Origin: a virus
Lineage: Duplodnaviria; Heunggongvirae; Uroviricota; Caudoviricetes
Length of the DNA stretch: 11,593 nucleotides
Reading direction: 5' to 3' (one strand)
Virus record (IMG/VR): IMGVR_UViG_2724679172_000001
Location: 1 to 11,593 of that record
Part shown: positions 1-11,593 of the stretch, in pieces
How the letters are laid out: each line of letters begins with the position of its first letter
How positions within the stretch are numbered: the stretch's first letter is position 1
The notes under the pieces: generated by a model
Told to the model about the DNA's origin: nothing
Database searches by the model: none
The model's input: only the letters and a program-made list of their open reading frames with translations
Translations under genes and position numbers: made by a program

Positions 1-55
1 GTGAGAGTCTGAAATAACCGCAAGCCGGAGATCAGCACCGGTCGCCACAATAACG

Positions 56-142
56 GGAGAGTAGGGAGCATGGTGCTCAAGCGGTCTTGAAAACCGTCCC
101 ATTGCGCAAGCGATGATGGTTCGATTCCATTACTCTCCGCCA
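56..142 (+). tRNA. tRNA-like gene, class II (long variable arm), anticodon UGA, so tRNA-Ser(UGA)-like; atypically short D-arm
   Basis: Manual fold: perfect 7-bp acceptor stem GGAGAGT (56-62) with ACTCTCC (132-138); discriminator G139; encoded CCA 140-142; T-arm GATGG / TTCGATT / CCATT (115-131) with the conserved GTTCGA box; anticodon stem 81-85 with 93-97 and 7-nt loop CTTGAAA (86-92) giving U33 then UGA; 17-nt variable arm (98-114) with a 5-bp stem. The D-arm is only a 4-bp stem with a 5-nt loop, which is unusual. G73 plus a long variable arm plus UGA are mutually consistent with Ser identity. Confidence 0.5.
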
Positions 143-388
143 GTGCAACGTTAAGAGTATTTGGCTAATTAAGCGAATGCCGGAAGCAGAACCGGATCAC
201 CAAATGCGTACAGGCGTCATCGCCGCCCAGCCAGCCAAGTGCTCTTACCATTGCGGTGAATGCGGCTAAGCGCACGCGGAACAGTTAAAACAATCCTCCT
301 TAGTGGTTAAGTCAAACATCCCGGCGTTAATTGTTAACTGGTTAACGTCACCTGGAGGCACCAGGCACCGCAACCTAATAAATACGTC

Positions 389-844
389 ATGTTTATTGAG
401 GGAAAACCAATGTTCGGTAAATTTTTCGGTAAGAAAGTCGCTTCAGCAAAAGTAGAGCTGAAAAGGGTTGAGAATCGCGATCTGATGGAGGCCATTATCG
501 GTGGCTGTTTGTTGGTGTCTGCCGCAGATGGTGAAATCGAAAAGGAAGAAACAGCGAAACTTGATCAGCTTGTCCGCTCTAATCCTCGCTTAAGTCATTT
601 TGGCAACGAAATTACCGCAACAATCACCCGATTTACTGAGCAACTGGAAGCTGGTTTCCGTGTTGGTCGCATGAATATCCTTCGCGAAATTGAAGATATC
701 AAAAATGATCCAAAAGAAGCGGAAGAAGTATTCGTTAACATGCTGACGATTGCAGAAGCGGACGGTGAAATCGAGCCAGCAGAACACAAAGTACTGGAAG
801 AAGTAGGCCGTCGTTTGGGCCTTCGTGTGGAAGATTATCTGTAA
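389..844 (+). CDS. TerB-family (tellurite-resistance TerB-like) protein; resembles the TciA-type gene of P1-like phages. Likely true start is the ATG at 410.
   Basis: ORF in the track. Acidic protein with two ADGEIE-type motifs (AADGEIEKEE, AEADGEIEPAE) typical of TerB domains as I recall them. The second in-frame ATG at 410 has an RBS-like GAGGGA at 398-403 with 6-nt spacing, giving MFGKFFGKK. Sits next to tRNA genes, as the P1 tciA region does. Confidence 0.65.
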   Translation: MFIEGKPMFGKFFGKKVASAKVELKRVENRDLMEAIIGGCLLVSAADGEIEKEETAKLDQLVRSNPRLSHFGNEITATITRFTEQLEAGFRVGRMNILREIEDIKNDPKEAEEVFVNMLTIAEADGEIEPAEHKVLEEVGRRLGLRVEDYL

Positions 845-1008
845 TGATTGGCAAGGCGCGTATTGCGTGCGCCATTGGTTTTCTCGTTTTGTCCGTGCTG
901 GTGGATTTCACCAGCAAAGTGATGTCGGTGTTGGCTGATGGGGCACTGGTTTCAGTAGCTGTGGTATTGCTATTGCCGATTATTAAAGCTGCGTTCAGGA
1001 ACTCATGA
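844..1008 (+). CDS. small hydrophobic protein (54 aa, MIGKARIACAIGFLVLSVLVDFTSKVMSVLADGALVSVAVVLLLPIIKAAFRNS), putative membrane peptide
   Basis: Hand-translated; below the length cutoff of the ORF track. Its ATG (844-846) overlaps the TAA stop (842-844) of the TerB-like gene, suggesting translational coupling. Predicted transmembrane-like hydrophobic stretches. Positional analogy to the small tciB/tciC genes of P1 is an inference. Confidence 0.35.
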   Translation: MIGKARIACAIGFLVLSVLVDFTSKVMSVLADGALVSVAVVLLLPIIKAAFRNS

Positions 1009-1118
1009 TGGATTTTTGGACGTATATTGATAAGAACCCTGGATGGTCTTTGCTATTTCTGCTTGTGATCGTATACGGAGTAGAACAAGTAGCGAAGAAT
1101 CTCAGGCGTCGAAAATAA
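1005..1118 (+). CDS. small hydrophobic protein (37 aa, MMDFWTYIDKNPGWSLLFLLVIVYGVEQVAKNLRRRK)
   Basis: Hand-translated. ATG at 1005 overlaps the end of the preceding small ORF (ATGA overlap with the TGA at 1006-1008). One hydrophobic helix followed by a basic tail. Ends 9 nt before the tRNA. Confidence 0.3.
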   Translation: MMDFWTYIDKNPGWSLLFLLVIVYGVEQVAKNLRRRK

Positions 1119-1127
1119 AAACTAATT

Positions 1128-1203
1128 GGCCCCTTAGCTCAGTGGTTAGAGCTGGCGACTCATAATCGCACGGTCACCGGTTCAAGTCCGGTAGGGGCCA
1201 CCA
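1128..1203 (+). tRNA. tRNA with CAU anticodon; closely resembles enterobacterial tRNA-Ile2 (ileX/ileY type, lysidine-modified to read AUA); would be typed Met(CAT) by anticodon alone
   Basis: 76 nt: GGCCCCTTAGCTCAGTGGTTAGAG...GACTCATAATCGC...GGTTCAAGTCCGGTAGGGGCCACCA. 7-bp acceptor stem GGCCCCT with AGGGGCC, canonical D-arm, anticodon loop CTCATAA, T-arm GGTTCAAGTCC, encoded CCA. The 5' half matches E. coli ileX/ileY as I recall them. P1-like phages are known to carry a tRNA for the rare AUA codon. Confidence 0.85.
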
Positions 1204-1656
1204 TATTTGGTTGTAACACGGCGTATGGCACATGCGTCGTTAGCGGTCTGGTGACGTTAAAGGGGTTACCTTTTCCCCTAGCTCAGGCAACAAACCAGGT
1301 AGCCGGAATGTGCAAGCCCCGTTCATATCGTCGGACCGAGGACTCACCATCCTGGCGATTCGGTGTGACAGCCGGAAGAGTACGGCGCACAACAGGAAAA
1401 GGCGTTTAATTAGCGTGAGCGCCGTTTCCGTTGTGGTAATTGCGGCTATGCGCTCGTGACGAAGCCATTTTCATTCACTACGTTCTGATAAGTGACGTCG
1501 CCAGGAGTGGCTAACCTGGCAGGTGGAGGCACCACCGCCACAACTCCTTTCAATTCATCATATAGCCGCTCAGGCTGTAACCCTTAATTAATACGAAGTT
1601 TCGACATCTCTATCGGTTTAACCGAGGGATGGTCGCGCGTGTAAAAAGGAGACGTT

Positions 1657-2232
1657 ATGTTAACGGCGAACGATAACGCGTATGCAGAAGCAGATCTCAT
1701 ATTGAGTGACTTCATCGGTCAGCGGGAACGCTGGACACAAAAGCGAGAGGAACTTTATGCCTCGTTAGTTCGCAAAGGTGTCAACATTGAAACCGCTCAA
1801 AGCGGCGATATGACGGTAGTCAGTGTTGGATTACATGGTGTGAGCGTGTCCGCAGCCAATCATGAGCCATACGTAGCGTTATCAGAGTCGATGGCAAGGC
1901 TAATTAAGTTTCTGAAGCAAACAGAAGCCAATAATGTTTTCATCGCCAAAAAGAACATCAATTTTTCTGCCGCCGTGTTCTGGATGATGAAGGGGCTTGA
2001 CGCCCGCCGGGCATCATGGCCTAAAGGGAGCTATATGTCGATGTTCCGTGGCAGTATAGGCAGCAAAGAAAAGCTCGTCGAATTCCTGCCGGAAGAAGCA
2101 TTCGATATTGTGGAAGGGTGCGATGTGATGGTTATGCCTCGGCTGGTAATGATGAATGGAGACTTACAGGCACAGACAGACTGGTTCGCCACTGGCGTGG
2201 ATATTATCGCGACTGACTGGGAGGCATTCTGA
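1657..2232 (+). CDS. hypothetical protein (191 aa); C-terminal ~90 aa is a DUF2829/Tad2-like domain paralogous to the C-terminus of the 9880-10542 product
   Basis: ORF with a strong RBS (AAGGAG at 1645-1650). C-terminal FSAAVFWMMKGLDARRASWPKGSY ... DWFATGVDIIATDWEAF aligns with FSDALMWLKDGKKVARRGWNGENQF ... PWVPSVGDLLACDWFVVE of the 220-aa ORF. The shared pattern FS-A--W-K-G--ARR--W--G ... W---V-D--A-DW is visible directly; the DUF2829 name is from memory. Confidence 0.6.
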   Translation: MLTANDNAYAEADLILSDFIGQRERWTQKREELYASLVRKGVNIETAQSGDMTVVSVGLHGVSVSAANHEPYVALSESMARLIKFLKQTEANNVFIAKKNINFSAAVFWMMKGLDARRASWPKGSYMSMFRGSIGSKEKLVEFLPEEAFDIVEGCDVMVMPRLVMMNGDLQAQTDWFATGVDIIATDWEAF

Positions 2233-2624
2233 TGTACGAGACCACAAAATTAAGCATTCACGAAGTATCCAATGTGGAGTGGAATATCGTCACCTGTAAG
2301 ATTGTATCGTGTAATGCTGCGCGTACTGATGCAGGCCATAAGAGCACGATAACAGGCTACATGGTAATGGCTTATAGGGGATTGAGAGTTCGCTTTATCT
2401 GGAAAGCTCGGCAATTGACACCATTCAGAGAGCCGTCAATGCCATTAGAGGTAGAACAGGATTATTTAAGCCTGCCGGAAATAGACGGTGCAACGCTGGT
2501 GGATTCTGATGGTCGTAAGGCTGATTTTGAAGTCAGCTTAAAGGTGGCGCAGGCCGTAATTAATAACTCACGTGGTAAGTGGATCGCTAAGGTAAAACAC
2601 GTCGTTCGCTTATCTCGCTGGTAG
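2232..2624 (+). CDS. hypothetical protein (130 aa), translationally coupled to the upstream ORF
   Basis: ATG at 2232 overlaps the TGA stop at 2230-2232 of the preceding ORF (TGATG). No motif recognised. Confidence 0.5.
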   Translation: MYETTKLSIHEVSNVEWNIVTCKIVSCNAARTDAGHKSTITGYMVMAYRGLRVRFIWKARQLTPFREPSMPLEVEQDYLSLPEIDGATLVDSDGRKADFEVSLKVAQAVINNSRGKWIAKVKHVVRLSRW

Positions 2625-2732
2625 TGTTAGATGAATGGAATTAATTTTCTAATATAACCAACTTTTTGCCAGTCTATACAGAAATAACATTCTCATTATC
2701 ATCCCCTCGGTCATTTCCTGCCTGGGGGATTA

Positions 2733-3125
2733 ATGGAGCATATCAGCAGCGCAGAAATTGCGGATATCATGATTAGGGCTGACTGCTATCTGACAGTCAC
2801 CGAAATCACCACTCTAGCTAAAGAAAAATATCCTCACCTTCATGTTTCACGCGTAAGTGTAACCAACATCATTCGGCATTTTGTGCGGTCAAGCCGAGCT
2901 ATTTGTGAGCTTGATGATCGTGTTTACCCACGGAAATACTGGTTGCATGGCCTGAACGGATATCAGTTCAAGGTGCGCGGGCGCACGCCTGAATACGGTA
3001 GCTTACTGGTTAAAAACTGTAGCAGGAAATCAGTCGAACAGGCGCGAAAAGAGCAACGAGAGCTGGTGGACATGGCGAATAAGCTGTGGAATGCCGCCGT
3101 TAAAAAGCGTGGTGTTGCTTTATGA
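2733..3125 (+). CDS. putative winged-helix DNA-binding protein; positional candidate for an Lpa-like late-promoter activator immediately upstream of pacA
   Basis: RBS GGGGGA 5 nt upstream of the ATG; stop overlaps the pacA start (ATGA at 3122-3125). Sequence LTVTEITTLAKEKYPHLHVSRVSVTNIIRH looks like an HTH. In P1, lpa lies directly upstream of pacA. The function is by synteny only. Confidence 0.45.
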   Translation: MEHISSAEIADIMIRADCYLTVTEITTLAKEKYPHLHVSRVSVTNIIRHFVRSSRAICELDDRVYPRKYWLHGLNGYQFKVRGRTPEYGSLLVKNCSRKSVEQARKEQRELVDMANKLWNAAVKKRGVAL

Positions 3126-4486
3126 GTCTGGTTAATTGGGAGGAGCACCGCGCCCGCTTTATAGCGTTGCGTGAAGAAAAAGGGATCACTGTAAAGGAAT
3201 ACTGTGAGGAGCATGGCCTTAGCTTCAATACAGCCAGAAAGCATCTCAATATGAAAAAAAATGAGGTGCGGTCGCAGGTAAAGACAACAAAAAAAAGCAC
3301 CAAATCACCTGAAAAAAAACGGGCGGGAAGAGCAACAAAAAAGCTGGAAGAGGGTGCAGAAAAAACAAAATTTACAGAAATTGACAATTCGCAGGGCGCA
3401 GGTTCTTTCCGAAGTATGCCGAGAAAGAAAACTTCGGATCATGAAAATAATGCAAATAATAACAATGAGATAAAAGAATCTGTCAGGAGATCATTGCGCG
3501 AAAAAATGGCGAAAATGATCCCCGAAGAAGATAAAAGCGCCCCAAAAATTGAGGGATCTTCAGCAATGATCCCTGGCGGTGCTGTGCAGCGTGCCACATT
3601 GCCCACTACGAATGTGGCTCGCGATATGATGAAGAACGGCGCAGAAGAACACCTGCGGTTAGCAATTCAAATGGCGCAAGAGCGCGCACTTCAGTATCAA
3701 AGCATTGTTGATCAGGAGGCCGAACGTCTACAGGCGGAAATAGACGCCTTGGGCGATAAAGAGCCAGAAGGAATGCACCCTGGGCAGCGCCTTCTCGGTC
3801 TAATCAGTGACGCTGCCTACTACATGAATGATTTTATCAGTAGGTTGGCAGCTATATATCAGTCCGAACAAAAGCTGCGACAGGGGGATGAAAAGCTTCG
3901 TCAGAGCGCTCGCCAGCAAGCATTCAAAGAGGCTGAGGCCAGAGAAAAACTCGAATTAGCACGCCTACAGGCCGAACAGCGTGGCAAAGAGATTGAATAT
4001 CGCATTGGCGCTGACGCACGCGCAGCCAGAGTTATCGCCGCCGCTATACGTATGCGTGAGCGCGAGGAACTGGATGATATCGGTGTTGCTGAATACATCG
4101 AGCGCCAGGGGGTCAGCGTCCCGGCTATCCTCGCGGCGCGCGCGGCGAAAGCTATCACTCTTCTCGAACCACCTGTTTCTGACGTCAATGATGTTGATGA
4201 TGAACAGCTGGACAAAGAGGCAAGGGAGTTTGCGACGCTTCAGGCTAACCATCCGCAATGGCTGGCAGAGCGCCGGGCGGATGTGGCAACCATTGTTGAA
4301 GAATTGGGGTGCGGAGATTACGACCGCAATGGCGAGCGTAAAGCTGGAGAATTCGAGGCCAACGACGAAGAGCTGGATATTGACCCTTCGGCAACGGCTG
4401 AAATTTACGGTGATTATGATGCATCTGATGCAGGGTATGACGCCGGAGATGAAGATATCGCGATAGAACCGCCGGAGGATGATTAA
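3122..4486 (+). CDS. pacA: terminase small (pac-recognition) subunit, PacA-like
   Basis: N-terminus MSLVNWEEHRARFIALREEKGITVKEYCEEHGLSFNTARKHL follows the HTH pattern of the P1 PacA N-terminus as I recall it (W--H--F--L---G-T---Y--E--L--NTAR--L). Long acidic C-terminus. Immediately upstream of, and translationally coupled to, the large terminase gene (TAATG at 4484-4488). Contains a GATC-hexamer cluster. Confidence 0.8.
   Translation: MSLVNWEEHRARFIALREEKGITVKEYCEEHGLSFNTARKHLNMKKNEVRSQVKTTKKSTKSPEKKRAGRATKKLEEGAEKTKFTEIDNSQGAGSFRSMPRKKTSDHENNANNNNEIKESVRRSLREKMAKMIPEEDKSAPKIEGSSAMIPGGAVQRATLPTTNVARDMMKNGAEEHLRLAIQMAQERALQYQSIVDQEAERLQAEIDALGDKEPEGMHPGQRLLGLISDAAYYMNDFISRLAAIYQSEQKLRQGDEKLRQSARQQAFKEAEAREKLELARLQAEQRGKEIEYRIGADARAARVIAAAIRMREREELDDIGVAEYIERQGVSVPAILAARAAKAITLLEPPVSDVNDVDDEQLDKEAREFATLQANHPQWLAERRADVATIVEELGCGDYDRNGERKAGEFEANDEELDIDPSATAEIYGDYDASDAGYDAGDEDIAIEPPEDD
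3436..3714. other. candidate pac (packaging initiation) site: cluster of Dam-site hexamers (NGATCN) inside pacA
   Basis: GATC-containing hexamers at 3436-3441 GGATCA, 3488-3493 AGATCA, 3516-3521 TGATCC, 3554-3559 GGATCT, 3567-3572 TGATCC and 3709-3714 TGATCA; five of them fall within 137 bp. The P1 pac site is known to lie within the 5' part of pacA and to consist of clustered TGATCA/G hexamers whose methylation controls cleavage. Confidence 0.45.
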
Positions 4487-5994
4487 TGGCTGGAGGGCGC
4501 AAGATTAAATGCGTCACCAGCGATCCACGCTGGCGCGATATGGTAATCAAATACCGCTACAACTTTACCCAGGCTGTTGTCGATATTTTTGGGATGTTCC
4601 CCTCCCACCAGCAGCAGCAGATCATTCAGTCCGTGCAGGAAACGGGGAGTAGGACGACCGTCACGTCCGGACACGGAACTGGGAAGTCGTCCCTTACCGC
4701 GATGTTGCTGTTGATTTTTATGATCCTGTTCCCCGATGCCCGTGTCATCATTGTTGCTAACAAGATAGGCCAGGTAAAAACAGGCGTATTCAAATACGTT
4801 AAACAGTATTGGGCGAATGCAGTTAAGCGTCATGGGTGGTTGCAGACCTATTTTGTCCTCTCTGACACCATGTTTTATGAGCGCTCCCGTAAGGGGATTT
4901 GGGAAGTTCTCTGCAAAGGTTATCGACTCGGCAACGAAGAAGCGCTGGCGGGGGAACATGCGGCACATTTGCTTCTAATTCTGGATGAAGCATCTGGTAT
5001 ATCTGATAAGGCGATCGGCGTAATGACCGGTGCTCTTACTGAAGAAGATAACCGGATGTTGATGCTATCCCAGCCAACAAGGCCAAGTGGTTATTTCTAC
5101 GATTCGCACCATTCTCAAGCAAAAACCCCAGACAACCCGAAAGGGATCTGGACAGCAATTGTTCTTAACTCGGAAGAATCACCGTTCGTCACACCACAAT
5201 TCATCAGGCAGAAGCTTCTGGAATATGGTGGGCGCGATTCTATTGAGTATATGGTCAAGGTGCTTGGTCAGTTCCCACGAGAAATTAACGGCTATTTGCT
5301 TGGTCGTGATGAATGCGATCGCGCTGCTCGCCGCAAGGTGTTGTTGGAGAAAAACTGGGGATGGGTGGCAACGGCTGACGTTGGTAATGGGCGAGATAAG
5401 TCGGTCCTCAACATCTGCAAGGTATCTGGTCACAGGGATAAGCGGCGCGTTGTTAACTTTAAGGTAATGGAGATGCCTGGCACTATGGACCCATTGGCCT
5501 TTGCTGACTTTATATATAACGAATGTACGCCGGAAAAATACCCGAATATAACAATCGCGGTTGATGCCGATGGTTTTGGTTCTGATACGTGTGCGCAGTT
5601 GGTACGTCGTGGTGCGAACCCGGTACGTATTCGGTGGGGAAAACCCATGTTTGCGAACAAAGACAGGGAGCGATTTGTTAATCAGCGTGCCTACGCAAAT
5701 ATTATGGCGCGTGATGCCATAAAGTCAGGGCGTATGCGGATAGACAGTGACCCTAAAACGGCAGAGCAAGCGTCAAAAATCCCCTTTTTACTGAATGAGG
5801 AAGGGAAAATGGCGATGATGCGCAAAGAGCACATGCGGCAAAAGCTAAACATCAAATCGCCTGACCGATGGGATACCTACTGCTTCACTATGCTGGTGGA
5901 CTATGTGCCTGCTAATGAAGATATTGGTGCCGAAATGGCAACTTTCCGAGATCAGGTTCTGGCGGATATCGAAATGCCGGATCTGGATATATAA
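4486..5994 (+). CDS. pacB: terminase large subunit (ATPase/nuclease), PacB-like
   Basis: Walker A VTSGHGTGKSS, Walker B LLLILDEASG, ~500 aa, directly downstream of and coupled to pacA. Gene order matches the P1 pacA-pacB arrangement. Confidence 0.85.
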   Translation: MAGGRKIKCVTSDPRWRDMVIKYRYNFTQAVVDIFGMFPSHQQQQIIQSVQETGSRTTVTSGHGTGKSSLTAMLLLIFMILFPDARVIIVANKIGQVKTGVFKYVKQYWANAVKRHGWLQTYFVLSDTMFYERSRKGIWEVLCKGYRLGNEEALAGEHAAHLLLILDEASGISDKAIGVMTGALTEEDNRMLMLSQPTRPSGYFYDSHHSQAKTPDNPKGIWTAIVLNSEESPFVTPQFIRQKLLEYGGRDSIEYMVKVLGQFPREINGYLLGRDECDRAARRKVLLEKNWGWVATADVGNGRDKSVLNICKVSGHRDKRRVVNFKVMEMPGTMDPLAFADFIYNECTPEKYPNITIAVDADGFGSDTCAQLVRRGANPVRIRWGKPMFANKDRERFVNQRAYANIMARDAIKSGRMRIDSDPKTAEQASKIPFLLNEEGKMAMMRKEHMRQKLNIKSPDRWDTYCFTMLVDYVPANEDIGAEMATFRDQVLADIEMPDLDI

Positions 5995-5996
5995 AA

Positions 5997-6013
5997 GCCC
6001 CGCGATGCGGGGC
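5997..6013. terminator. GC-rich hairpin between convergent genes (pacB on plus, 345-aa gene on minus); likely bidirectional intrinsic terminator
   Basis: GCCCCGC (5997-6003), loop GAT, GCGGGGC (6007-6013): perfect 7-bp stem. An A-run lies just upstream on the plus strand, which is a U-tract for minus-strand transcripts. Confidence 0.5.
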
Positions 6014-6022
6014 CGGTTGTGA

Positions 6023-7060
6023 TTACCAGAGCTTCGCGGCGTACTGCGTTTGGGGGAATGTGTATCCGTAACGTTCTTCGATTGCTTTGCCGTATTTTTT
6101 ACGAGCTTCATTCAGTTTAATGCCGGTCAGGTCGTCTCCAGAGGCCATCATTACGTCTAACAATTCCAGATCCATTTTATCCAACCTTGCCATTGCTTCA
6201 CGTGATGTACGTATCTTACGTTCAATGATATGGCGAATAGCCGGATCGGCATCCTCCAGCATCTTAGCGGATTTCTGCTTAAGGCTTTCATTGCGAATAT
6301 CGATGTTCCTTAAGATGTACGACTTCGCAACGTAGCTTGGCTGGTGTTTTTCCAGGTCACGAACACGATATAAGTTAAAATCGCCGAGAAGGCTGCATGG
6401 TACCGATTCGACGCCAGAATAAATTGTAATGCTCCGGCGTTCACCAACATTATTGACAACGGGGATCGTTGTCTTCGGTAGTCTTGCGAAAACCAATGCG
6501 CCATGTGCGCCAACTCTAAAGCGAGAAAGGGCATTGCTGCCTTCGATGTTTGTTGTCAGCACAACATCTGTATATGCCTCTTTACGCGCCCGGTAGATCT
6601 CGCCTTCAGGCTCAGCTTCAAAGAAGCGCTGTTCTTCTTCAAGAGCACCTACGATTTGAGAAAAAACCCTATTTTTCAGGCTTTTCTTTATGATTTTGTC
6701 GTATTTTTTTAGCAATTGTTCACGTGTAAATGTACGTGTTGTTGTAGCGCTTTGCACAACGACATGCGTGCTTTGATTGGTGTCCTCAATGATGAATGGG
6801 ATCGGAGAATATACAGACTCAACAATGTTCGACGCTTTGCCGTCGGCATCGCGGCACATGTCAACGAAGGCTTTCCATTCAGCAAGACATTTTTCAGCTT
6901 CTTCTAATATGTTTTGGTCATGCGTTAATGCAACATGGCGGAATTCCTCGCCAGCATAACTGGTATCATGGAAAACAGAGTTTGCGACCACCAGCTCTTT
7001 CCACCGTTCAGCGGTTTGCAGGAACCGTTTGTACTCTTTCTCGATCGACTTCTTACTCAT
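6023..7060 (-). CDS. hypothetical protein (345 aa) occupying the position of the P1 c1 immunity repressor (convergent with pacB, adjacent to the lox-type site); function unassigned
   Basis: Long ORF on the minus strand with an RBS-like AGGAAT before the ATG (reverse complement of 7061-7071). No catalytic motif recognised. I could not see convincing similarity to the P1 C1 sequence as I remember it. Looks somewhat more AT-rich than its neighbours by eye. Confidence 0.65.
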   Translation of the reverse strand: MSKKSIEKEYKRFLQTAERWKELVVANSVFHDTSYAGEEFRHVALTHDQNILEEAEKCLAEWKAFVDMCRDADGKASNIVESVYSPIPFIIEDTNQSTHVVVQSATTTRTFTREQLLKKYDKIIKKSLKNRVFSQIVGALEEEQRFFEAEPEGEIYRARKEAYTDVVLTTNIEGSNALSRFRVGAHGALVFARLPKTTIPVVNNVGERRSITIYSGVESVPCSLLGDFNLYRVRDLEKHQPSYVAKSYILRNIDIRNESLKQKSAKMLEDADPAIRHIIERKIRTSREAMARLDKMDLELLDVMMASGDDLTGIKLNEARKKYGKAIEERYGYTFPQTQYAAKLW

Positions 7061-7270
7061 TATTCCTACTCGATTTAGTTTTCTAACATAAAATTACTAT
7101 GACAAATTTATGTCGAATAACAGGGTGAGTAAAGGATCGAACTGTGATTTTTTGTCATCAATTTTAGAAAACCAACCGTAGAAACCACACTTCGCAAATT
7201 AAAGACCATGAAGGCAACGTGTTACTGGTCATCATCAATCTATGATGGATTAAAAAAAATCGGCATTTTA

Positions 7271-7302
7271 TAACTTTAAATAATTGGCATTATTTAAAGT
7301 TA
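7271..7302. other. rox-type recombination target site for the adjacent Dre recombinase (14-bp inverted repeats around a 4-bp spacer)
   Basis: TAACTTTAAATAAT TGGC ATTATTTAAAGTTA: the right arm is the exact reverse complement of the left arm. The 32-bp sequence is the reverse complement of the rox site as I recall it (TAACTTTAAATAATGCCAATTATTTAAAGTTA). The outer ATAACTT also matches the loxP arm start. Lies ~150 bp upstream of the recombinase gene. Confidence 0.85.
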
Positions 7303-7311
7303 GGCTATAAT
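7284..7311 (+). promoter_or_regulatory. candidate sigma70-type promoter overlapping the rox site and reading toward dre
   Basis: -35 TTGGCA (7284-7289, spanning the rox spacer), 16-bp spacer, -10 TATAAT (7306-7311). Recombinase binding at rox would be expected to occlude it. Confidence 0.35.
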
Positions 7312-7454
7312 CATGGGTAGATGATCAGTGTTGACATTACTAAAAATACGTGTCTCGAATCAAAGGCTTGTATTTTGAAAATTAACTTGTAGCTACCCTG
7401 TCATTTTTATATTTTTCGCGTAGCGTCATCTGTATATAGAGGCGAAATAGTTTC

Positions 7455-8483
7455 ATGAGTGAATTAATTATCTCTGGCAGTTCCGGTGGTTTTCTGCGCA
7501 ACATTGGCAAAGAGTACCAGGAAGCCGCAGAAAACTTTATGCGGTTCATGAATGACCAGGGGGCTTACGCGCCGAATACTTTGCGCGATCTCCGGTTAGT
7601 GTTTCACTCCTGGGCGCGATGGTGCCACGCTCGCCAGCTCGCCTGGTTCCCGATCTCACCAGAGATGGCCCGCGAGTATTTTCTTCAGCTGCATGATGCT
7701 GATCTGGCTTCGACCACCATTGATAAGCACTACGCCATGCTTAACATGCTGCTTTCGCATTGTGGCCTTCCGCCACTTTCGGATGATAAAAGTGTTTCTC
7801 TGGCTATGCGGCGCATCCGGCGCGAAGCGGCAACGGAAAAAGGCGAACGAACAGGCCAGGCTATACCGCTGCGGTGGGACGATCTGAAACTGCTCGACGT
7901 CCTGTTGTCCAGGTCAGAACGGCTGGTGGACCTGCGTAACCGGGCTTTCCTCTTCGTTGCATACAATACGCTGATGCGAATGTCTGAAATCTCGCGTATT
8001 CGTGTAGGAGATCTGGACCAAACAGGTGACGCTGTCACGCTACATATTTCACACACGAAGACAATAACGACCGCCGCCGGGCTTGATAAGGTGCTTTCCC
8101 GTCGCACTACCGCAGTGCTGAATGACTGGCTGGATGTTTCCGGGCTTCGTGAATATCCTGACGCGGTGCTGTTCCCGCCGATACACCGTAGCAATAAAGC
8201 CAGGATTACGACAACTCCCCTTACTGCACCTGCAATGGAGAAAATATTCAGCGACGCCTGGGTGTTGCTGAATAAAAGGGATGCCGCGCCAAACAAAGGG
8301 AGATACCGGACGTGGACCGGGCATAGTGCTCGTGTCGGGGCCGCTATCGATATGGCTGAAAAGCAGGTGTCTATGGTGGAGATCATGCAGGAAGGAACCT
8401 GGAAGAAACCGGAAACACTTATGCGGTATCTGCGCCGTGGCGGCGTGTCTGTGGGGGCTAATAGCCGCTTGATGGATTCGTAA
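7455..8483 (+). CDS. dre: Cre-family tyrosine site-specific recombinase, Dre
   Basis: 342 aa. Aligns along its length with P1 Cre from memory (for example HSWARWCHARQLAWFP against RSWAAWCKLNNRKWFP; LSDDKSVSLAMRRIRRE against PSDSNAVSLVMRRIRKE; GHSARVGAAIDMA against GHSARVGAARDMA; catalytic Tyr in LMRYL). The N-terminus MSELIISGSSGGFLRNIGKEYQEAAENF matches Dre of phage D6 as I recall it. A perfect rox site lies upstream. Confidence 0.9.
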   Translation: MSELIISGSSGGFLRNIGKEYQEAAENFMRFMNDQGAYAPNTLRDLRLVFHSWARWCHARQLAWFPISPEMAREYFLQLHDADLASTTIDKHYAMLNMLLSHCGLPPLSDDKSVSLAMRRIRREAATEKGERTGQAIPLRWDDLKLLDVLLSRSERLVDLRNRAFLFVAYNTLMRMSEISRIRVGDLDQTGDAVTLHISHTKTITTAAGLDKVLSRRTTAVLNDWLDVSGLREYPDAVLFPPIHRSNKARITTTPLTAPAMEKIFSDAWVLLNKRDAAPNKGRYRTWTGHSARVGAAIDMAEKQVSMVEIMQEGTWKKPETLMRYLRRGGVSVGANSRLMDS

Positions 8484-8544
8484 ATTAAATTTCTAACACA
8501 TCTTTTTAGATTGATATCTTTGCTGTAAAGTACCCTCGCCTATT

Positions 8545-8901
8545 TTGGAGGGTGCTTTGCAGAGTCAAATCACGGAATCAAGACGCTTCACGGTGGATGG
8601 TTACACCGTAACCTTCGCCGCTGGTGTTAAGAACAGTCATGCTGTCGTTGTATTCGGCATCATGACCGGGCTTGAGGCCGTCCCTGTGTTTACCCTCGAA
8701 AAAAACTGGCGAAATCTGGAGGAAGCGGAAAGCTACGTCCGGAAAGTAACCATCATTGCCGCCGAAAAACTCCTGGCTCACTATCAGGAAAATTATCGCA
8801 CTATGGTCGAGAAAATTAATCTCGCTTTCACTCGCCCCACTACAGGCTTCATCGCACCGGAGACTAATACAGGTCGCTATCCTGCAAGGGGGCGTCGGTG
8901 A
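8545..8901 (+). CDS. hypothetical protein (up to 118 aa; start uncertain), first gene of the post-dre operon
   Basis: ORF in the track. The 8545 start is a TTG; an in-frame TTG at 8557 is preceded by GGAGGG (8547-8552); in-frame GTG at 8593 and ATG at 8662 are alternatives. Stop TGA at 8899-8901 overlaps the GTG start of the next ORF. Confidence 0.45.
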   Translation: MEGALQSQITESRRFTVDGYTVTFAAGVKNSHAVVVFGIMTGLEAVPVFTLEKNWRNLEEAESYVRKVTIIAAEKLLAHYQENYRTMVEKINLAFTRPTTGFIAPETNTGRYPARGRR

Positions 8902-9374
8902 AAAATTATTACCCATCTCTGAATTGTTACCCGTCTTCGTATCCGGAATTGTCCGGGAAGCTGTTAGCTCTATTGGCTAAATCACCAACTGAATGGTTTA
9001 AGCCTGTCGTTATCAATCCGCACTTCCTGGATTACGGATCTGTTCGCACTCGTAACGAACTCAAAAACCTGCTGGCGCATGGATTCATTCGACACCGTGC
9101 CGGGAAAGGCTATCAGTTAGCGATTTCGCCAGAAGAGGCCGTGCAGCTATTCGCATATCGTGACAGCCAGACAAAAGCTCGGGTAATAGCTCAAATACTT
9201 CATAACGGCAGCACCTATGCCCGCCAGTTTGGCGGCGACACGTCGCAGTTCTTGCGGGCGGTGCGATCGCTGGAGGAGCAAGGAGTTATTGAAAGTTCCT
9301 GTATTCCTGTTCCTACCGTTCCACATATCAAACGTCGGGTTTACACCTTCACGCAGAGAGCTAAAAAACAATGA
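8898..9374 (+). CDS. hypothetical protein (158 aa), possible winged-helix DNA-binding protein
   Basis: GTG start with RBS AGGGGG (8886-8891) at 6-nt spacing. Coupled both upstream (GTGA) and downstream (ATGA at 9371-9374). The region LSGKLLALLAKSP...GFIRHRAGKGYQLAISPEEAVQLF resembles MarR/winged-helix recognition helix plus wing; this is pattern-based, not verified. Confidence 0.5.
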   Translation: MKNYYPSLNCYPSSYPELSGKLLALLAKSPTEWFKPVVINPHFLDYGSVRTRNELKNLLAHGFIRHRAGKGYQLAISPEEAVQLFAYRDSQTKARVIAQILHNGSTYARQFGGDTSQFLRAVRSLEEQGVIESSCIPVPTVPHIKRRVYTFTQRAKKQ

Positions 9375-9865
9375 TTTACGTAAAAGTGAAACGCCTACAT
9401 CCGGCAGCAAAACTTCCAGCTTATGCCACCTCCGGATCGGCGGCGATGGATTTTGAGGCTGTTGAAATAAAACCATGTGTCGATAGCAATGGTGCAATTT
9501 CCTCAAGCTGGTGGGTGTACACCGGACTGGCTATGGAGATCCCGCCCGGCTGGTGTCTGAAACTCTATCCGCGTTCCGGATTGGGCTGCAAAAAACATAC
9601 TCGCCTGGCTAACTGCGTAGGAATTATCGACTCCGATTATCGCGGTGAAATCATGGCAAAACTGATTACAGATCCCGGTGGTGAAGGCGTTTGCCTCAAG
9701 CCAGGAATGGCGGTCATGCAAGGCATTTTTGAGCGTGTTGAACCGGTATCGCTGGTAGAAGTTGATGAACTCGATGAAACAGAGCGAGGCGCTGGTGGCT
9801 TTGGTAGCACATCGGAAGACCGCGTTGAAATCAAGCGTACACCGCTTCAGTACGCAAAGTTTTAA
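9371..9865 (+). CDS. dut: dUTP diphosphatase (trimeric dUTPase)
   Basis: The five canonical dUTPase motifs are present: GSAAMDF (I), YPRSGLG (II), GIIDSDYRGEI (III), MAVMQGIF (IV), RGAGGFGSTSE (V). Confidence 0.9.
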   Translation: MIYVKVKRLHPAAKLPAYATSGSAAMDFEAVEIKPCVDSNGAISSSWWVYTGLAMEIPPGWCLKLYPRSGLGCKKHTRLANCVGIIDSDYRGEIMAKLITDPGGEGVCLKPGMAVMQGIFERVEPVSLVEVDELDETERGAGGFGSTSEDRVEIKRTPLQYAKF

Positions 9866-9879
9866 GTAGAGGAAGGATT

Positions 9880-10542
9880 ATGGTCAGCACTTTTCAGGTG
9901 TTCCCCAAATACAAATGCCACAGCATCATTCGGGCATCGAAAATCAAAGATATTGTTATTGTCGGCAAAGCTTATGCGCCCATTTTTGGCAGTATCGAAG
10001 TCGTTGAGCCAAAAGGAATGACGCTTCGTGTTGATGGTGTGTTCTTGGAAAAATTCCGACCGCAAATAGGAGGATATCTCGTCACTGCTGAAAATGGCTA
10101 TCTGGTCTATGTGCCAGAGAAAGCATTTGAAAAATGCTATAGCCGGGTTAACGACGCCTCCGAAAATGGGGTATCGCTCAGCATTGAAGGTCACAATGGG
10201 GTGACATTCATTACAGCCAGGGACGTAACTATTTCTGCTGGCGGTATCGCTACTCTACAAGAAGAAATCGACCTTGAAGCAGCCGACTTTTCTGACGCGC
10301 TGATGTGGCTGAAGGATGGCAAGAAAGTTGCCCGGCGCGGGTGGAACGGCGAAAACCAATTCTGCTGGCTGGTTCCTGAAGGACAGTACCCGGCACGAAT
10401 GGAAGCCATTAAGGGATATTTCCCCGGCGATCTCGTTCCGTATGGTGCTTATTTCGCCTTAAAAAATGCACAAGGTGTAGTTGTTCCGTGGGTGCCTTCG
10501 GTAGGCGACTTACTGGCGTGTGACTGGTTTGTAGTGGAGTGA
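9880..10542 (+). CDS. two-domain protein (220 aa): N-terminal domain of unknown function plus C-terminal DUF2829/Tad2-like domain
   Basis: Strong RBS AGGAAGG before the ATG. C-terminal FSDALMWLKDGKKVARRGWNGENQF ... VVPWVPSVGDLLACDWFVVE fits the DUF2829 signature as I recall it (F-EAL-ALK-GKKV-R-GWNG ... LA-DW-IV) and is paralogous to the C-terminus of the 1657-2232 product. Confidence 0.65.
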   Translation: MVSTFQVFPKYKCHSIIRASKIKDIVIVGKAYAPIFGSIEVVEPKGMTLRVDGVFLEKFRPQIGGYLVTAENGYLVYVPEKAFEKCYSRVNDASENGVSLSIEGHNGVTFITARDVTISAGGIATLQEEIDLEAADFSDALMWLKDGKKVARRGWNGENQFCWLVPEGQYPARMEAIKGYFPGDLVPYGAYFALKNAQGVVVPWVPSVGDLLACDWFVVE

Positions 10543-10548
10543 TTTGAC

Positions 10549-11349
10549 ATGGAAAGCACCAAAACAATTCAATACCGCTTGCGTAATGGCCTGCTGGTGG
10601 CTGTTAACGCTGATATGTCACTGCCGTTTGACACGATAGAACGCACTATCATGACGTATCTCGGCTTTAATGAAGAGCTGAATGAAGAGCATGGCGTAGC
10701 TATATGGAGTGATGCAGAAAGCGGCGTTCATCGTTACATCACCGCCAGGGGCAAAGACTACTCTCTGGAAGAACTGTTTACCCTTGCACAGTCTTTCGAA
10801 TGTGTAGCATTAGACATGTTTAATGATCCTGCTATAGCGCAACGACTTATACGCGAGCTTGGACTATCCGTTACACCAATTATCTTTAAGAATGGCAGCC
10901 TGACTGGCACATGGCGCGTAGAACGCATCTCAAACTACCTTCCATATAACCGACAGTTAAATGGAGTAATCTCCGGCGTTAATCAGCCCGTAGCGTGTGA
11001 AAATGTAAACCTGGTTGCCGCTGTTTTGGCAACCGCATGTCGTGTTATCGGTTTGGCTAAACAGGCTTTTATTCATTTCCCAAATGGTGCAGAAGGTAGC
11101 GCAGAGATTATCGCGTGTGATTTCGAATTTACCTGGATGCTACGCGAATATCTGGACCAAACAGTGTTCCGCGCCGAAGAACTGGATATGTATATCACGT
11201 CAACGATTCCTGATGATGTGCGTGCTGAAGCAATCGCCACAGCAAGGGCCAAATGCCGTGCGGCGATTGCAGAGCAGGCCAAAGAAGAACCGTCCGATGA
11301 AGCCGTGGCTGATGTTGAAGCAGAGGTAGCGGAGGATGCTGACGCCTAA
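10549..11349 (+). CDS. hypothetical acidic protein (266 aa) with a poly-acidic C-terminal tail
   Basis: ORF with GGAG 9 nt upstream. By my hand count about 41 Asp+Glu against 22 Lys+Arg. C-terminus EEPSDEAVADVEAEVAEDADA. Last gene of the operon; followed by an intrinsic terminator. Confidence 0.6.
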   Translation: MESTKTIQYRLRNGLLVAVNADMSLPFDTIERTIMTYLGFNEELNEEHGVAIWSDAESGVHRYITARGKDYSLEELFTLAQSFECVALDMFNDPAIAQRLIRELGLSVTPIIFKNGSLTGTWRVERISNYLPYNRQLNGVISGVNQPVACENVNLVAAVLATACRVIGLAKQAFIHFPNGAEGSAEIIACDFEFTWMLREYLDQTVFRAEELDMYITSTIPDDVRAEAIATARAKCRAAIAEQAKEEPSDEAVADVEAEVAEDADA

Positions 11350-11404
11350 AAACATCACCGAATTAGCTGGCTGACAGCAGAAAAAATCATTGAGTGATAG
11401 TAGG

Positions 11405-11434
11405 AAGCCCGCCTGGTTGAGCGGGCTTCTTTTC
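11405..11434 (+). terminator. intrinsic terminator closing the post-dre operon (also immediately downstream of the convergent doc gene)
   Basis: AAGCCCGC (11405-11412), loop CTGGTTGA, GCGGGCTT (11421-11428), followed by CTTTTC. 8-bp stem plus T-tract. Confidence 0.6.
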
Positions 11435-11593
11435 AAATATTGGAACCAAATAATTCACGTAGTTTTTCCGCTACTGAAGATACGGGGATTTCACCAGTTG
11501 CGGCCCCCACCGCAAGTTCCACCAGCACGGGAGAATCATATACCTGTATACCGTTACGGCGTAGAAATAGCAGCGCACTGTTTAGCGCGGTAC
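11433..11593 (-). CDS. doc: Doc toxin (Fic-family kinase of the phd-doc addiction module), C-terminal part; gene continues beyond the window end
   Basis: Reverse-strand translation reads ...TALNSALLFLRRNGIQVYDSPVLVELAVGAATGEIPVSSVAEKLRELFGSNI*, which matches the C-terminus of P1 Doc as I recall it (...TALNSALLFLRRNGVQVFDSPVLADLTVGAATGEISVSSVADTLRRLYGSAE). Stop is the reverse complement of 11433-11435. Truncated by the window edge, so absent from the ORF track. Confidence 0.8.
   Translation of the reverse strand, partial: TALNSALLFLRRNGIQVYDSPVLVELAVGAATGEIPVSSVAEKLRELFGSNI

Follow-up and report, generated by a model that had tools for sequence, protein, structure and literature searches.

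A predicted Tad2-type sponge in a variable slot of the accessory operon downstream of dre in a D6-like phage-plasmid

Phage-plasmids of the D6-like and P1-like types occur commonly in E. coli, Shigella and Salmonella, clinically important lineages among them, and their two namesakes offer the closest described counterparts to the stretch of viral DNA analysed here (IMG/VR record IMGVR_UViG_2724679172_000001, positions 1 to 11,593; the whole stretch of 11,593 nucleotides (nt) is hereafter called the window), in which five plus-strand genes, designated g1 to g5, follow the recombinase gene dre. In the phage D6 record (NC_050154), these five genes are annotated as orf117, orf116, orf115 (dUTPase), orf114 (DUF2829) and orf113 ('similar to P1 gene isaA'). 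In P1, the recombinase gene cre is followed by c8, ref and mat and then by res/mod on the opposite strand, and cra is located upstream of cre. The c8 gene, which lies directly after cre, carries the annotation 'establishment of lysogeny, putative', while isaA shares a transcript with ssb, driven by a promoter under C1 control (the C1-repressed ssb operon). Both c8 and isaA are non-essential for plaque formation in P1, which fits accessory roles of g1 and g5.

A further point of reference is the Tad2 family, the members of which sequester, depending on the member, 3'cADPR, His-ADPR, N7-cADPR (ADPR, adenosine diphosphate ribose), cUMP/cCMP or CBASS dinucleotides (10.1101/2023.05.01.538930; 10.1101/2024.01.03.573942; 10.1101/2025.08.24.671296). 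According to the literature on this family, His-ADPR and cUMP are bound at separate sites in ModTad2, and stand-alone Tad2 proteins of ~90 amino acids (aa) were sufficient in published assays. In a survey of phage-plasmids from 2025, 'Tad2 AcrIIA7 (anti-Thoeris)' was recorded in 93% of the D6-like and 56% of the P1-like elements, and a complete defence system was found in one D6-like element only (10.1101/2025.09.12.675607).

Judged by sequence comparison, the window derives from a D6-like phage-plasmid, and the five-gene stretch represents its accessory operon downstream of dre. The operon region is 99.6% identical to that of the E. coli plasmid NZ_AP027678 and 95.6% identical to that of phage D6, at least 80% of the stretch 7400-11593 is held by more than 115 plasmids, and the likeness to D6 orf117-orf113 extends to gene order and to 94-99% protein identity for g1, g2, the dUTPase gene dut (g3) and the isaA homolog (g5). 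The original prediction, made from the letters of the window, had regarded the five genes as an undescribed combination that replaces a P1 accessory locus with the order cra-ref-mat-res-mod after cre. This did not stand, as the combination is that of D6, occurs in more than 115 plasmids and includes the Tad2 gene recorded in the survey's 93% of D6-like elements, and as the P1 order is the one given above. Nor is the P1 locus simply replaced, since g1 is a remote homolog of C8 in the same position, g5 is a homolog of IsaA, and the g4-g5 pair is found after ssb in P1-like phages; what P1 has where the D6-like elements have g2, dut, Tad2 and isaA is ref, mat and res/mod. The results refine the annotation of a known element and leave current concepts unchanged. 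From our point of view, the operon is rather likely a mosaic, in which a backbone of g1, g2 and IsaA surrounds a small exchangeable slot with dut and a Tad2 gene, and not a five-component machine.

This reading is carried by a synteny map, for which the five proteins together with dre, c1 and pacB were located by tblastn on 20 related loci from E. coli, Salmonella, Klebsiella, Enterobacter and Raoultella. In every D6-like relative mapped, c1, dre, g1, g2 and IsaA follow each other in the same order, and a variable slot lies between g2 and IsaA. This slot is occupied by dut alone in S. Typhi pK91, L011 and L018, by dut and a Tad2 gene in the window and in L016-L024, and by one 304-aa open reading frame (ORF) that fuses a complete dUTPase to a Tad2 domain in Klebsiella michiganensis (L015). 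In Enterobacter hormaechei (L013 and L014), dut is absent, and the slot contains genes for an N6/N4 DNA methyltransferase and a Tad2 protein together with a Cys-rich ORF of 169 aa. The region downstream of dre had been proposed to be a cargo hotspot, and a synteny comparison had been suggested to find out whether it varies; across the 20 loci, the slot between g2 and IsaA does vary, but g1, g2 and IsaA constitute a constant backbone. The notion that all five genes form one module had to be given up, as relatives that retain the other genes may lack the Tad2 gene or have something else in place of dut.

The Tad2 gene itself behaves as a cassette. The linker and Tad2 modules of g4 share 100% protein identity with those of the P1-like phages SJ46 and Ro157, whereas the adjacent IsaA proteins are only 47% identical, and in other D6-like elements the flanks are 93% identical while the Tad2 allele between them reaches no more than 63% identity. 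As in the window, the gene in SJ46 and Ro157 encodes a putative oligonucleotide/oligosaccharide-binding (OB) domain together with Tad2 and is located directly upstream of isaA; in the P1-like phages, however, this pair resides in the ssb operon and not after cre. P1 itself is without a Tad2 gene and shows a clean junction. What else the slot contains in relatives, namely an orphan methyltransferase and Tad2 in alternative forms, suggests, for a small sample, that it tends to collect counter-defence genes. The slot between g2 and IsaA would be the place to look for new counter-defence genes in D6-like elements, and g1, g2 and IsaA, as the backbone of the lineage, could be left aside in such a search.

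Several details of these loci may be added. In the K. michiganensis ORF (L015:6434-7348), which is known from one assembly only, the dUTPase part includes motif V and is joined to the Tad2 domain by a linker of ~80 aa. In the two E. hormaechei loci (3711-6004 in L013 and L014), a 385-aa methyltransferase takes the position of dut and is followed by a 212-aa Tad2 protein and then by the Cys-rich ORF. A second, unrelated adjacency of dUTPase and Tad2 was seen in Bacillus phage Shanette, where a Tad2 homolog (93206-93475) adjoins a gene annotated as deoxyUTP pyrophosphatase. In Klebsiella variicola (L016/L017, 2979-3848), an extra 289-aa ORF is inserted between dre and g1; its MspA-like match in Pfam is weak and does not reach the cutoff (E 6e-4).

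The occupant of the slot to which a function can be assigned in terms of immunity is g4, a protein of 220 aa that consists of three modules, namely a putative OB domain related to the decoration protein Dec, a linker and a Tad2 domain. By several lines of comparison, the last of these is a true and complete Tad2 domain: Pfam family PF11195 matches aa 136-219 with 80.2 bits (cutoff 25), and the C-terminal 89 residues align with residues 2-89 of the 89 residues of ModTad2 (9eib) at 45% identity (E 6e-21) with one single-residue gap. The domain also matches 8v3e (ModTad2) and 8wjd as well as, more weakly, 8kbi (HgmTad2/AcrIIA7) and 8sme (SPO1 Tad2). For SPO1 Tad2, W25, N26, W73, S76 and D79 have been described as the residues contacting glycocyclic ADPR (gcADPR) (10.1101/2023.05.01.538930), and all five are kept in g4 as W155, N156, W204, S207 and D210. 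The product of the gene is named 'Thoeris anti-defense Tad2 family protein' in UniRef, and a search of the supplements of 10.1101/2025.08.24.671296 did not find the g4 sequence among the proteins tested there.

We therefore predict, with due regard to the fact that the argument is one of homology, that g4 is a sponge for Thoeris-type immune signalling nucleotides, which would make it the sole protein of the operon with an evidence-based counter-defence role. By analogy to the solved Tad2 proteins, the domain would assemble in the same way and bind TIR-derived signals, with His-ADPR or cyclic ADPR isomers as the most likely ligands and cyclic mono- or dinucleotides as possible ligands at a second site. 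Removal of the signal would leave a Thoeris-type effector, and perhaps also Pycsar or CBASS effectors, in the off state. The likeness of g4 to the Tad2 proteins with published assays thus lies in the end-to-end alignment of the domain, the pocket residues and the signal sequestration that may be expected from them, whereas the difference lies in its architecture, as the tested members are single-domain proteins of ~90 aa and g4 carries the OB domain and the linker in addition. D6 orf114 (DUF2829, 146 aa) differs from g4 in that it is without the OB domain.

The N-terminal module of g4 matches PDB entry 6e3c, the decoration protein Dec of phage L, at the profile level (E 2.5e-5) with the shared motif P-E-x-G-G-Y-L. 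The likeness to Dec is one of OB-fold sequence. The domain is also encountered in early or accessory regions and in other fusions. As a protein of its own it is encoded in Ralstonia phage GP4, where its gene is flanked by those for the portal and the capsid; in Klebsiella phage SopranoGao its fusion partner is Tad2, and in a Burkholderia phage it is a different domain. The beta-rich linker of 38 residues occurs in two alleles, of which that of the window is 100% identical to the one in SJ46 and 53-55% identical to those of other D6-like elements.

A second, divergent Tad2-like gene was detected far upstream of the operon (Table 1). Its product of 191 aa matches PF11195 at aa 102-190 with 37.7 bits (cutoff 25). 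The W-N of Tad2 is replaced by W-P in this protein, and the W...D motif is retained; the D6 counterpart, with an identity of 91.6%, is annotated as hypothetical. The start of a downstream 130-aa ORF overlaps the stop of this gene. On the basis of these matches, the element carries two Tad2-family genes. Together with the OB-Tad2 and dUTPase-Tad2 fusions, two paralogs in one element represent natural variants, which could inform how the specificity and the assembly of such sponges evolve.

With regard to operon architecture, the five ORFs (8545-8901, 8898-9374, 9371-9865, 9880-10542 and 10549-11349) overlap at GTGA (8898-8901, g1/g2) and ATGA (9371-9374, g2/g3) and are otherwise separated by gaps of 14 nt (9866-9879, g3-g4) and 6 nt (10543-10548, g4-g5). 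They can be regarded as real genes and not as chance ORFs because each matches a PHROG family (E 2e-47 to 5e-135) and is conserved in many relatives. The stop codons of g1 and g2 each overlap the start codon of the next gene, which couples the translation of g1, g2 and dut, and g4 and g5 possess ribosome-binding sites of their own. The operon ends at a GC-rich intrinsic terminator, the only terminator-like site that was found on the plus strand within the operon region, which abuts the stop of the convergent minus-strand gene doc, so that the C-terminus of doc faces it. In all these respects, that is, the five coupled plus-strand ORFs with their overlaps and gaps, the clean terminator and the convergence with doc, the original prediction was borne out, and the same is true for its calls of a canonical dUTPase, of a winged-helix-like g2 and of a DUF2829/Tad2-like domain at the C-terminus of g4. 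For g1, which had been given as a protein of 118 aa, the gene is real but most likely begins at TTG 8557 and not at 8545, resulting in 114 aa, because the D6 annotation uses this start, residue 5 is the first one covered by the PHROG match and all relatives keep TTG-CAG.

No promoter-like site was found in the gap between dre and g1. Since a near-consensus site is located upstream of dre, the five genes are probably co-transcribed with dre from a promoter at that position. A P1-type C1 operator was searched for across the whole window with up to 3 mismatches and was not found; D6 operators may differ in sequence. A conserved RNA hairpin of 15 base pairs (bp) with a 10-nt loop occupies the 73-nt dre-g1 spacer region and encloses the Shine-Dalgarno sequence GGAGGG (8547-8552) and the TTG start (8557-8559) of g1. 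It folds with -25.6 kcal/mol (z -6.1), and none of 200 shuffled sequences was as stable. Because two of its pairs are G-U, it is fully paired only in the plus-strand RNA. All nine diverged relatives that were examined contain the hairpin, with 86.7% of the alignment cells paired compared to 38-56% in controls with slid partners. Compensatory changes affect two pairs, in three sequences each, and the observed values were reached in 3-4 of 500 shuffles. Rfam yielded no family match at this position, and the cre-c8 junction of P1 shows no hairpin of this type. The hairpin probably acts as a translational gate for g1 and, via the coupling, also for g2 and dut, and as such offers a simple model for how an operon of this kind could be kept quiet.

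The first gene of the operon belongs to a small family (11 representative clusters among 1.84 billion proteins in an exhaustive HMMER search), without informative relatives, and sequence searches against Pfam, NCBIfam and PDB returned chance-level matches only. In a profile-profile comparison with hhalign, however, the g1 family matches the P1 C8 family with a probability of 96.9% (E 1.6e-10, 88 columns). By this match and by the same position directly after the recombinase gene (cre-c8 in P1 and dre-g1 in the window), g1 corresponds to c8 in its location and is remotely homologous to it in sequence. For g2, the same sequence searches gave chance-level matches only, and a relationship to P1 Mat was rejected (hhalign probability 2%). 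Its structure model (pLDDT 72) shows two winged-helix units in one chain with the topology H1-H2-H3-strand-wing-strand, on the basis of which g2 is probably a DNA-binding protein. Compared to winged-helix repressors such as BlaI/MecI, PadR, MarR and ArsR, g2 belongs to no Pfam winged helix-turn-helix family and accommodates two units in a chain of 158 aa. Both g1 and g2 may thus be small regulators of the life cycle of the element itself.

The third gene, g3, encodes a canonical trimeric-type dUTPase, as seen from profile scores (PF00692, 51 bits; NCBIfam equivalog NF001862, 118.2 bits with a cutoff of 103; TIGR00576, 116.6 bits with a cutoff of 102.55) and from the motifs II, III and V (PRSG, GIIDSDYRGE and RGAGGFGSTS). 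The enzyme would keep uracil out of the DNA of the element.

The last gene, g5, encodes an IsaA homolog, which over aa 1-225 shares 47% identity with the P1 protein (E 6e-62; phmmer E 2e-77). The family comprises 14 clusters and is confined to enterobacterial phage-plasmids. In the AlphaFold model of g5, which is of good quality (pLDDT 82, pTM 0.77), a long helix and an acidic tail accompany two subdomains of the alpha/beta type. A structure search of BFVD with this model returned only P1's own protein, and Pfam searches at relaxed thresholds with 13 members of the family gave no consistent match. The protein had been described as strongly acidic, which is correct in so far as its isoelectric point (pI) is 4.5 and its net charge -20; half of the excess, however, is located in a C-terminal tail of 26 residues that is absent from many homologs. 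A role as DNA mimic is not proposed for g5 for this reason.

Two observations concern the surroundings of isaA. Downstream of g5, the window contains, by comparison with relatives, the deletion scar of a gene for a PacB-like terminase-ATPase paralog, of which the first 10 and the last ~11 codons are left. This gene is intact (364-366 aa) after isaA in some relatives (L005:4408-5502, L023:8457-9557 and L024:8457-9557), and its product is ~36% identical to PacB aa 8-264, the terminase ATPase domain. D6 differs from the window here, as it has pdcA between isaA and doc. The 56 residues with which 'IsaA' begins in the P1 annotation (L004:2070-2240) recur almost unchanged at the start of the Tad2-fusion protein as annotated in SJ46 (L002:4791-4960). 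The true starts of both proteins are probably at Met57, and the shared leader of 56 residues marks the junction between presence and absence of the Tad2 cassette.

A number of points speak against the mosaic reading, or against the roles assigned to single genes within it, and should be borne in mind. Although the gcADPR pocket is kept, four contacts on the adenine side differ between SPO1 Tad2 and g4 (T65N, D67Q, H71V and T78G), as does the peripheral I63L, and ligand specificity in the Tad2 family is not readable from sequence, so that the sponge role of g4 stays a prediction. The N-terminal extension of 131 residues might alter the assembly of g4, because Tad2 forms tetramers and Dec trimers. 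IsaA is constantly located right after the Tad2 cassette in two lineages, which we treat as coincidental and which could mean a functional link. For regulation, the promoter is assigned by consensus match only, and a regulatory role of g1 and g2 is deduced from a fold and from a P1 label that itself reads 'putative'. The covariation of the hairpin is modest (nine related sequences with two compensatory pairs), and the ribosome-binding site and the coding sequence also limit how far part of its 3' arm can change; as the sequences are few and related, the support for a translational gate is moderate.

In this context, one could imagine that the five proteins constitute one integrated counter-defence system, in which g2 is the regulator and Dut, Tad2 and IsaA act jointly on immune nucleotide signals or on the resulting damage. 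The tight packing of the genes and the translational coupling of g1, g2 and dut would be in line with such a system, as would the dUTPase-Tad2 fusion of K. michiganensis, the neighbouring Tad2 and dUTPase genes in Bacillus phage Shanette and the fact that IsaA directly follows the Tad2 cassette in two settings, the dre operon of D6-like and the ssb operon of P1-like elements. We nevertheless consider it quite unlikely, because relatives without Tad2 or dut keep the remaining genes: pK91, L011 and L018 have g1, g2, dut and IsaA without Tad2, L013 has Tad2 without dut, and P1 keeps isaA and c8 without Tad2, dut and g2. Beyond that, SopranoGao has an OB-Tad2 fusion without IsaA, the stand-alone Tad2 proteins mentioned above needed no partners in the published assays, and the fusion is the one seen in a single assembly. 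The frame of g1, g2, slot and IsaA might also be a dedicated counter-defence cargo platform with new anti-immune functions in its unassigned parts, which seems improbable to us. Were it true, the hairpin could keep the operon silent up to the point of infection or induction. For Tad2, the linker and the Dec-like OB domain could bring a new assembly, a tether (e.g. to capsids) or a second site for ligands. The fusion of dUTPase and Tad2 could point to a part of Dut in neutralising nucleotide-based immunity, and IsaA could be a new anti-defence protein or a partner of Tad2.

The region had also been put forward as a candidate defence or counter-defence module, and the two halves of this proposal fared differently. 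The counter-defence half finds support in the predicted function of g4. Anti-phage defence cargo analogous to the EcoP1I res/mod genes, with IsaA as a nuclease-like effector and g2 as sensor or regulator, appears extremely unlikely, even though the position after the recombinase gene is a cargo region in P1-like elements: a PADLOC-DB scan gave no match for four of the five proteins and one chance-level match for g2 (E 0.022, 12 bits), no ATPase, TIR, cyclase, protease or clear nuclease motif was found in the five proteins with Pfam and NCBIfam, and the one protein that can clearly be placed in the context of defence is assigned to the sponges that counteract it. As a lineage backbone, the genes are moreover conserved across D6-like elements and do not occur sporadically as cargo would, and the survey cited above found a complete defence system in just one such element. 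It is finally conceivable, if unlikely, that apart from Tad2 the operon has nothing to do with immunity, that g1 and g2 control lysogeny or plasmid establishment, that Dut serves nucleotide-pool hygiene and IsaA as a replication or recombination accessory, and that the slot is permissive for any insertion. Many phages carry dut as a housekeeping gene. The homology of g1 to C8 with its lysogeny annotation, the fold of g2, which is that of transcription regulators, and the co-transcription of P1 isaA with ssb under C1 control all agree with this proposal; the slot occupants other than dut, namely the orphan DNA methyltransferase and the Tad2 variants, have annotations of the counter-defence type, and the shuffling of Tad2 alleles is typical of arms-race genes. 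It overlaps largely with the mosaic that we favour and differs from it only on whether the slot is specialised.

As regards novelty, the five genes were already annotated in D6 and the Tad2 gene was already flagged in the survey and in UniRef. In the literature searched, we found no report of the homology of g1 to C8, the hairpin at g1, the Dec-like domain attached to Tad2, the variable slot with its fusion of dUTPase and Tad2, or the second Tad2-like gene; the hairpin, the Dec-like domain and the second Tad2-like gene are possibly new.

Table 1. Positions of the operon genes, their modules and other features in the window.
Feature	Position	Strand	Basis
tRNA-Ser(tga)	56-142		
TerB-domain ORF, 151 aa	389-844		
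tRNA-Met(cat)	1128-1203		
Second Tad2-like gene (putative), 191 aa	1657-2232	+	PF11195
rox recombination site, 14-bp inverted arms and 4-bp spacer, upstream of dre	7271-7302		read from sequence
Sigma-70 promoter-like site TTGGCA-16-TATAAT, 11/12 matches, overlaps rox	7284-7311	+	consensus match only
dre, tyrosine recombinase, upstream of operon	7455-8483	+	99% identical to D6 Dre
Conserved RNA hairpin in the dre-g1 spacer region	8523-8562	+	folding and alignment of relatives
g1, 114 aa, basic, remote P1 C8 homolog	8557-8901	+	phrog_1968; hhalign
g2, 158 aa, basic (pI 9.9), tandem winged-helix; start overlaps g1 stop	8898-9374	+	structure model
g3 (dut), trimeric-type dUTP diphosphatase, 164 aa; start overlaps g2 stop	9371-9865	+	hidden Markov models, motifs
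g4, predicted OB-linker-Tad2 protein	9880-10542	+	
g4 N-terminal domain, aa 1-93, probably related to Dec OB-fold	9880-10158	+	profile against PDB
g4 middle segment, aa 94-131, linker	10159-10272	+	alignment
g4 Tad2 domain, aa 132-220	10273-10542	+	PF11195, ModTad2 alignment
g5, IsaA homolog, 266 aa, acidic	10549-11349	+	P1 IsaA match
Remnant of PacB-like terminase-ATPase paralog gene	11336-11397	+	comparison with relatives
Intrinsic terminator, hairpin and U-tract	11402-11436	+	-19.8 kcal/mol, z -3.7

The rest of the window has a D6/P1-type layout with tRNAs, lpa (the late promoter activator), pacA, pacB, c1 (minus strand), rox and dre. The rox site was located with the rox consensus, and a rox half-site is annotated at the equivalent place in the D6 record. 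Outside the D6-like group, a P1-like plasmid of Salmonella arizonae (L026) contains a sequence near the P1 C1 operator consensus (ATTGCTCTAATAATTTT) at 3960-3985, just upstream of its c8-like gene. The same plasmid carries four extra ORFs between c8 and ref, one of them with a DUF2591-like N-terminus, so that P1-like elements, too, vary in what follows c8.

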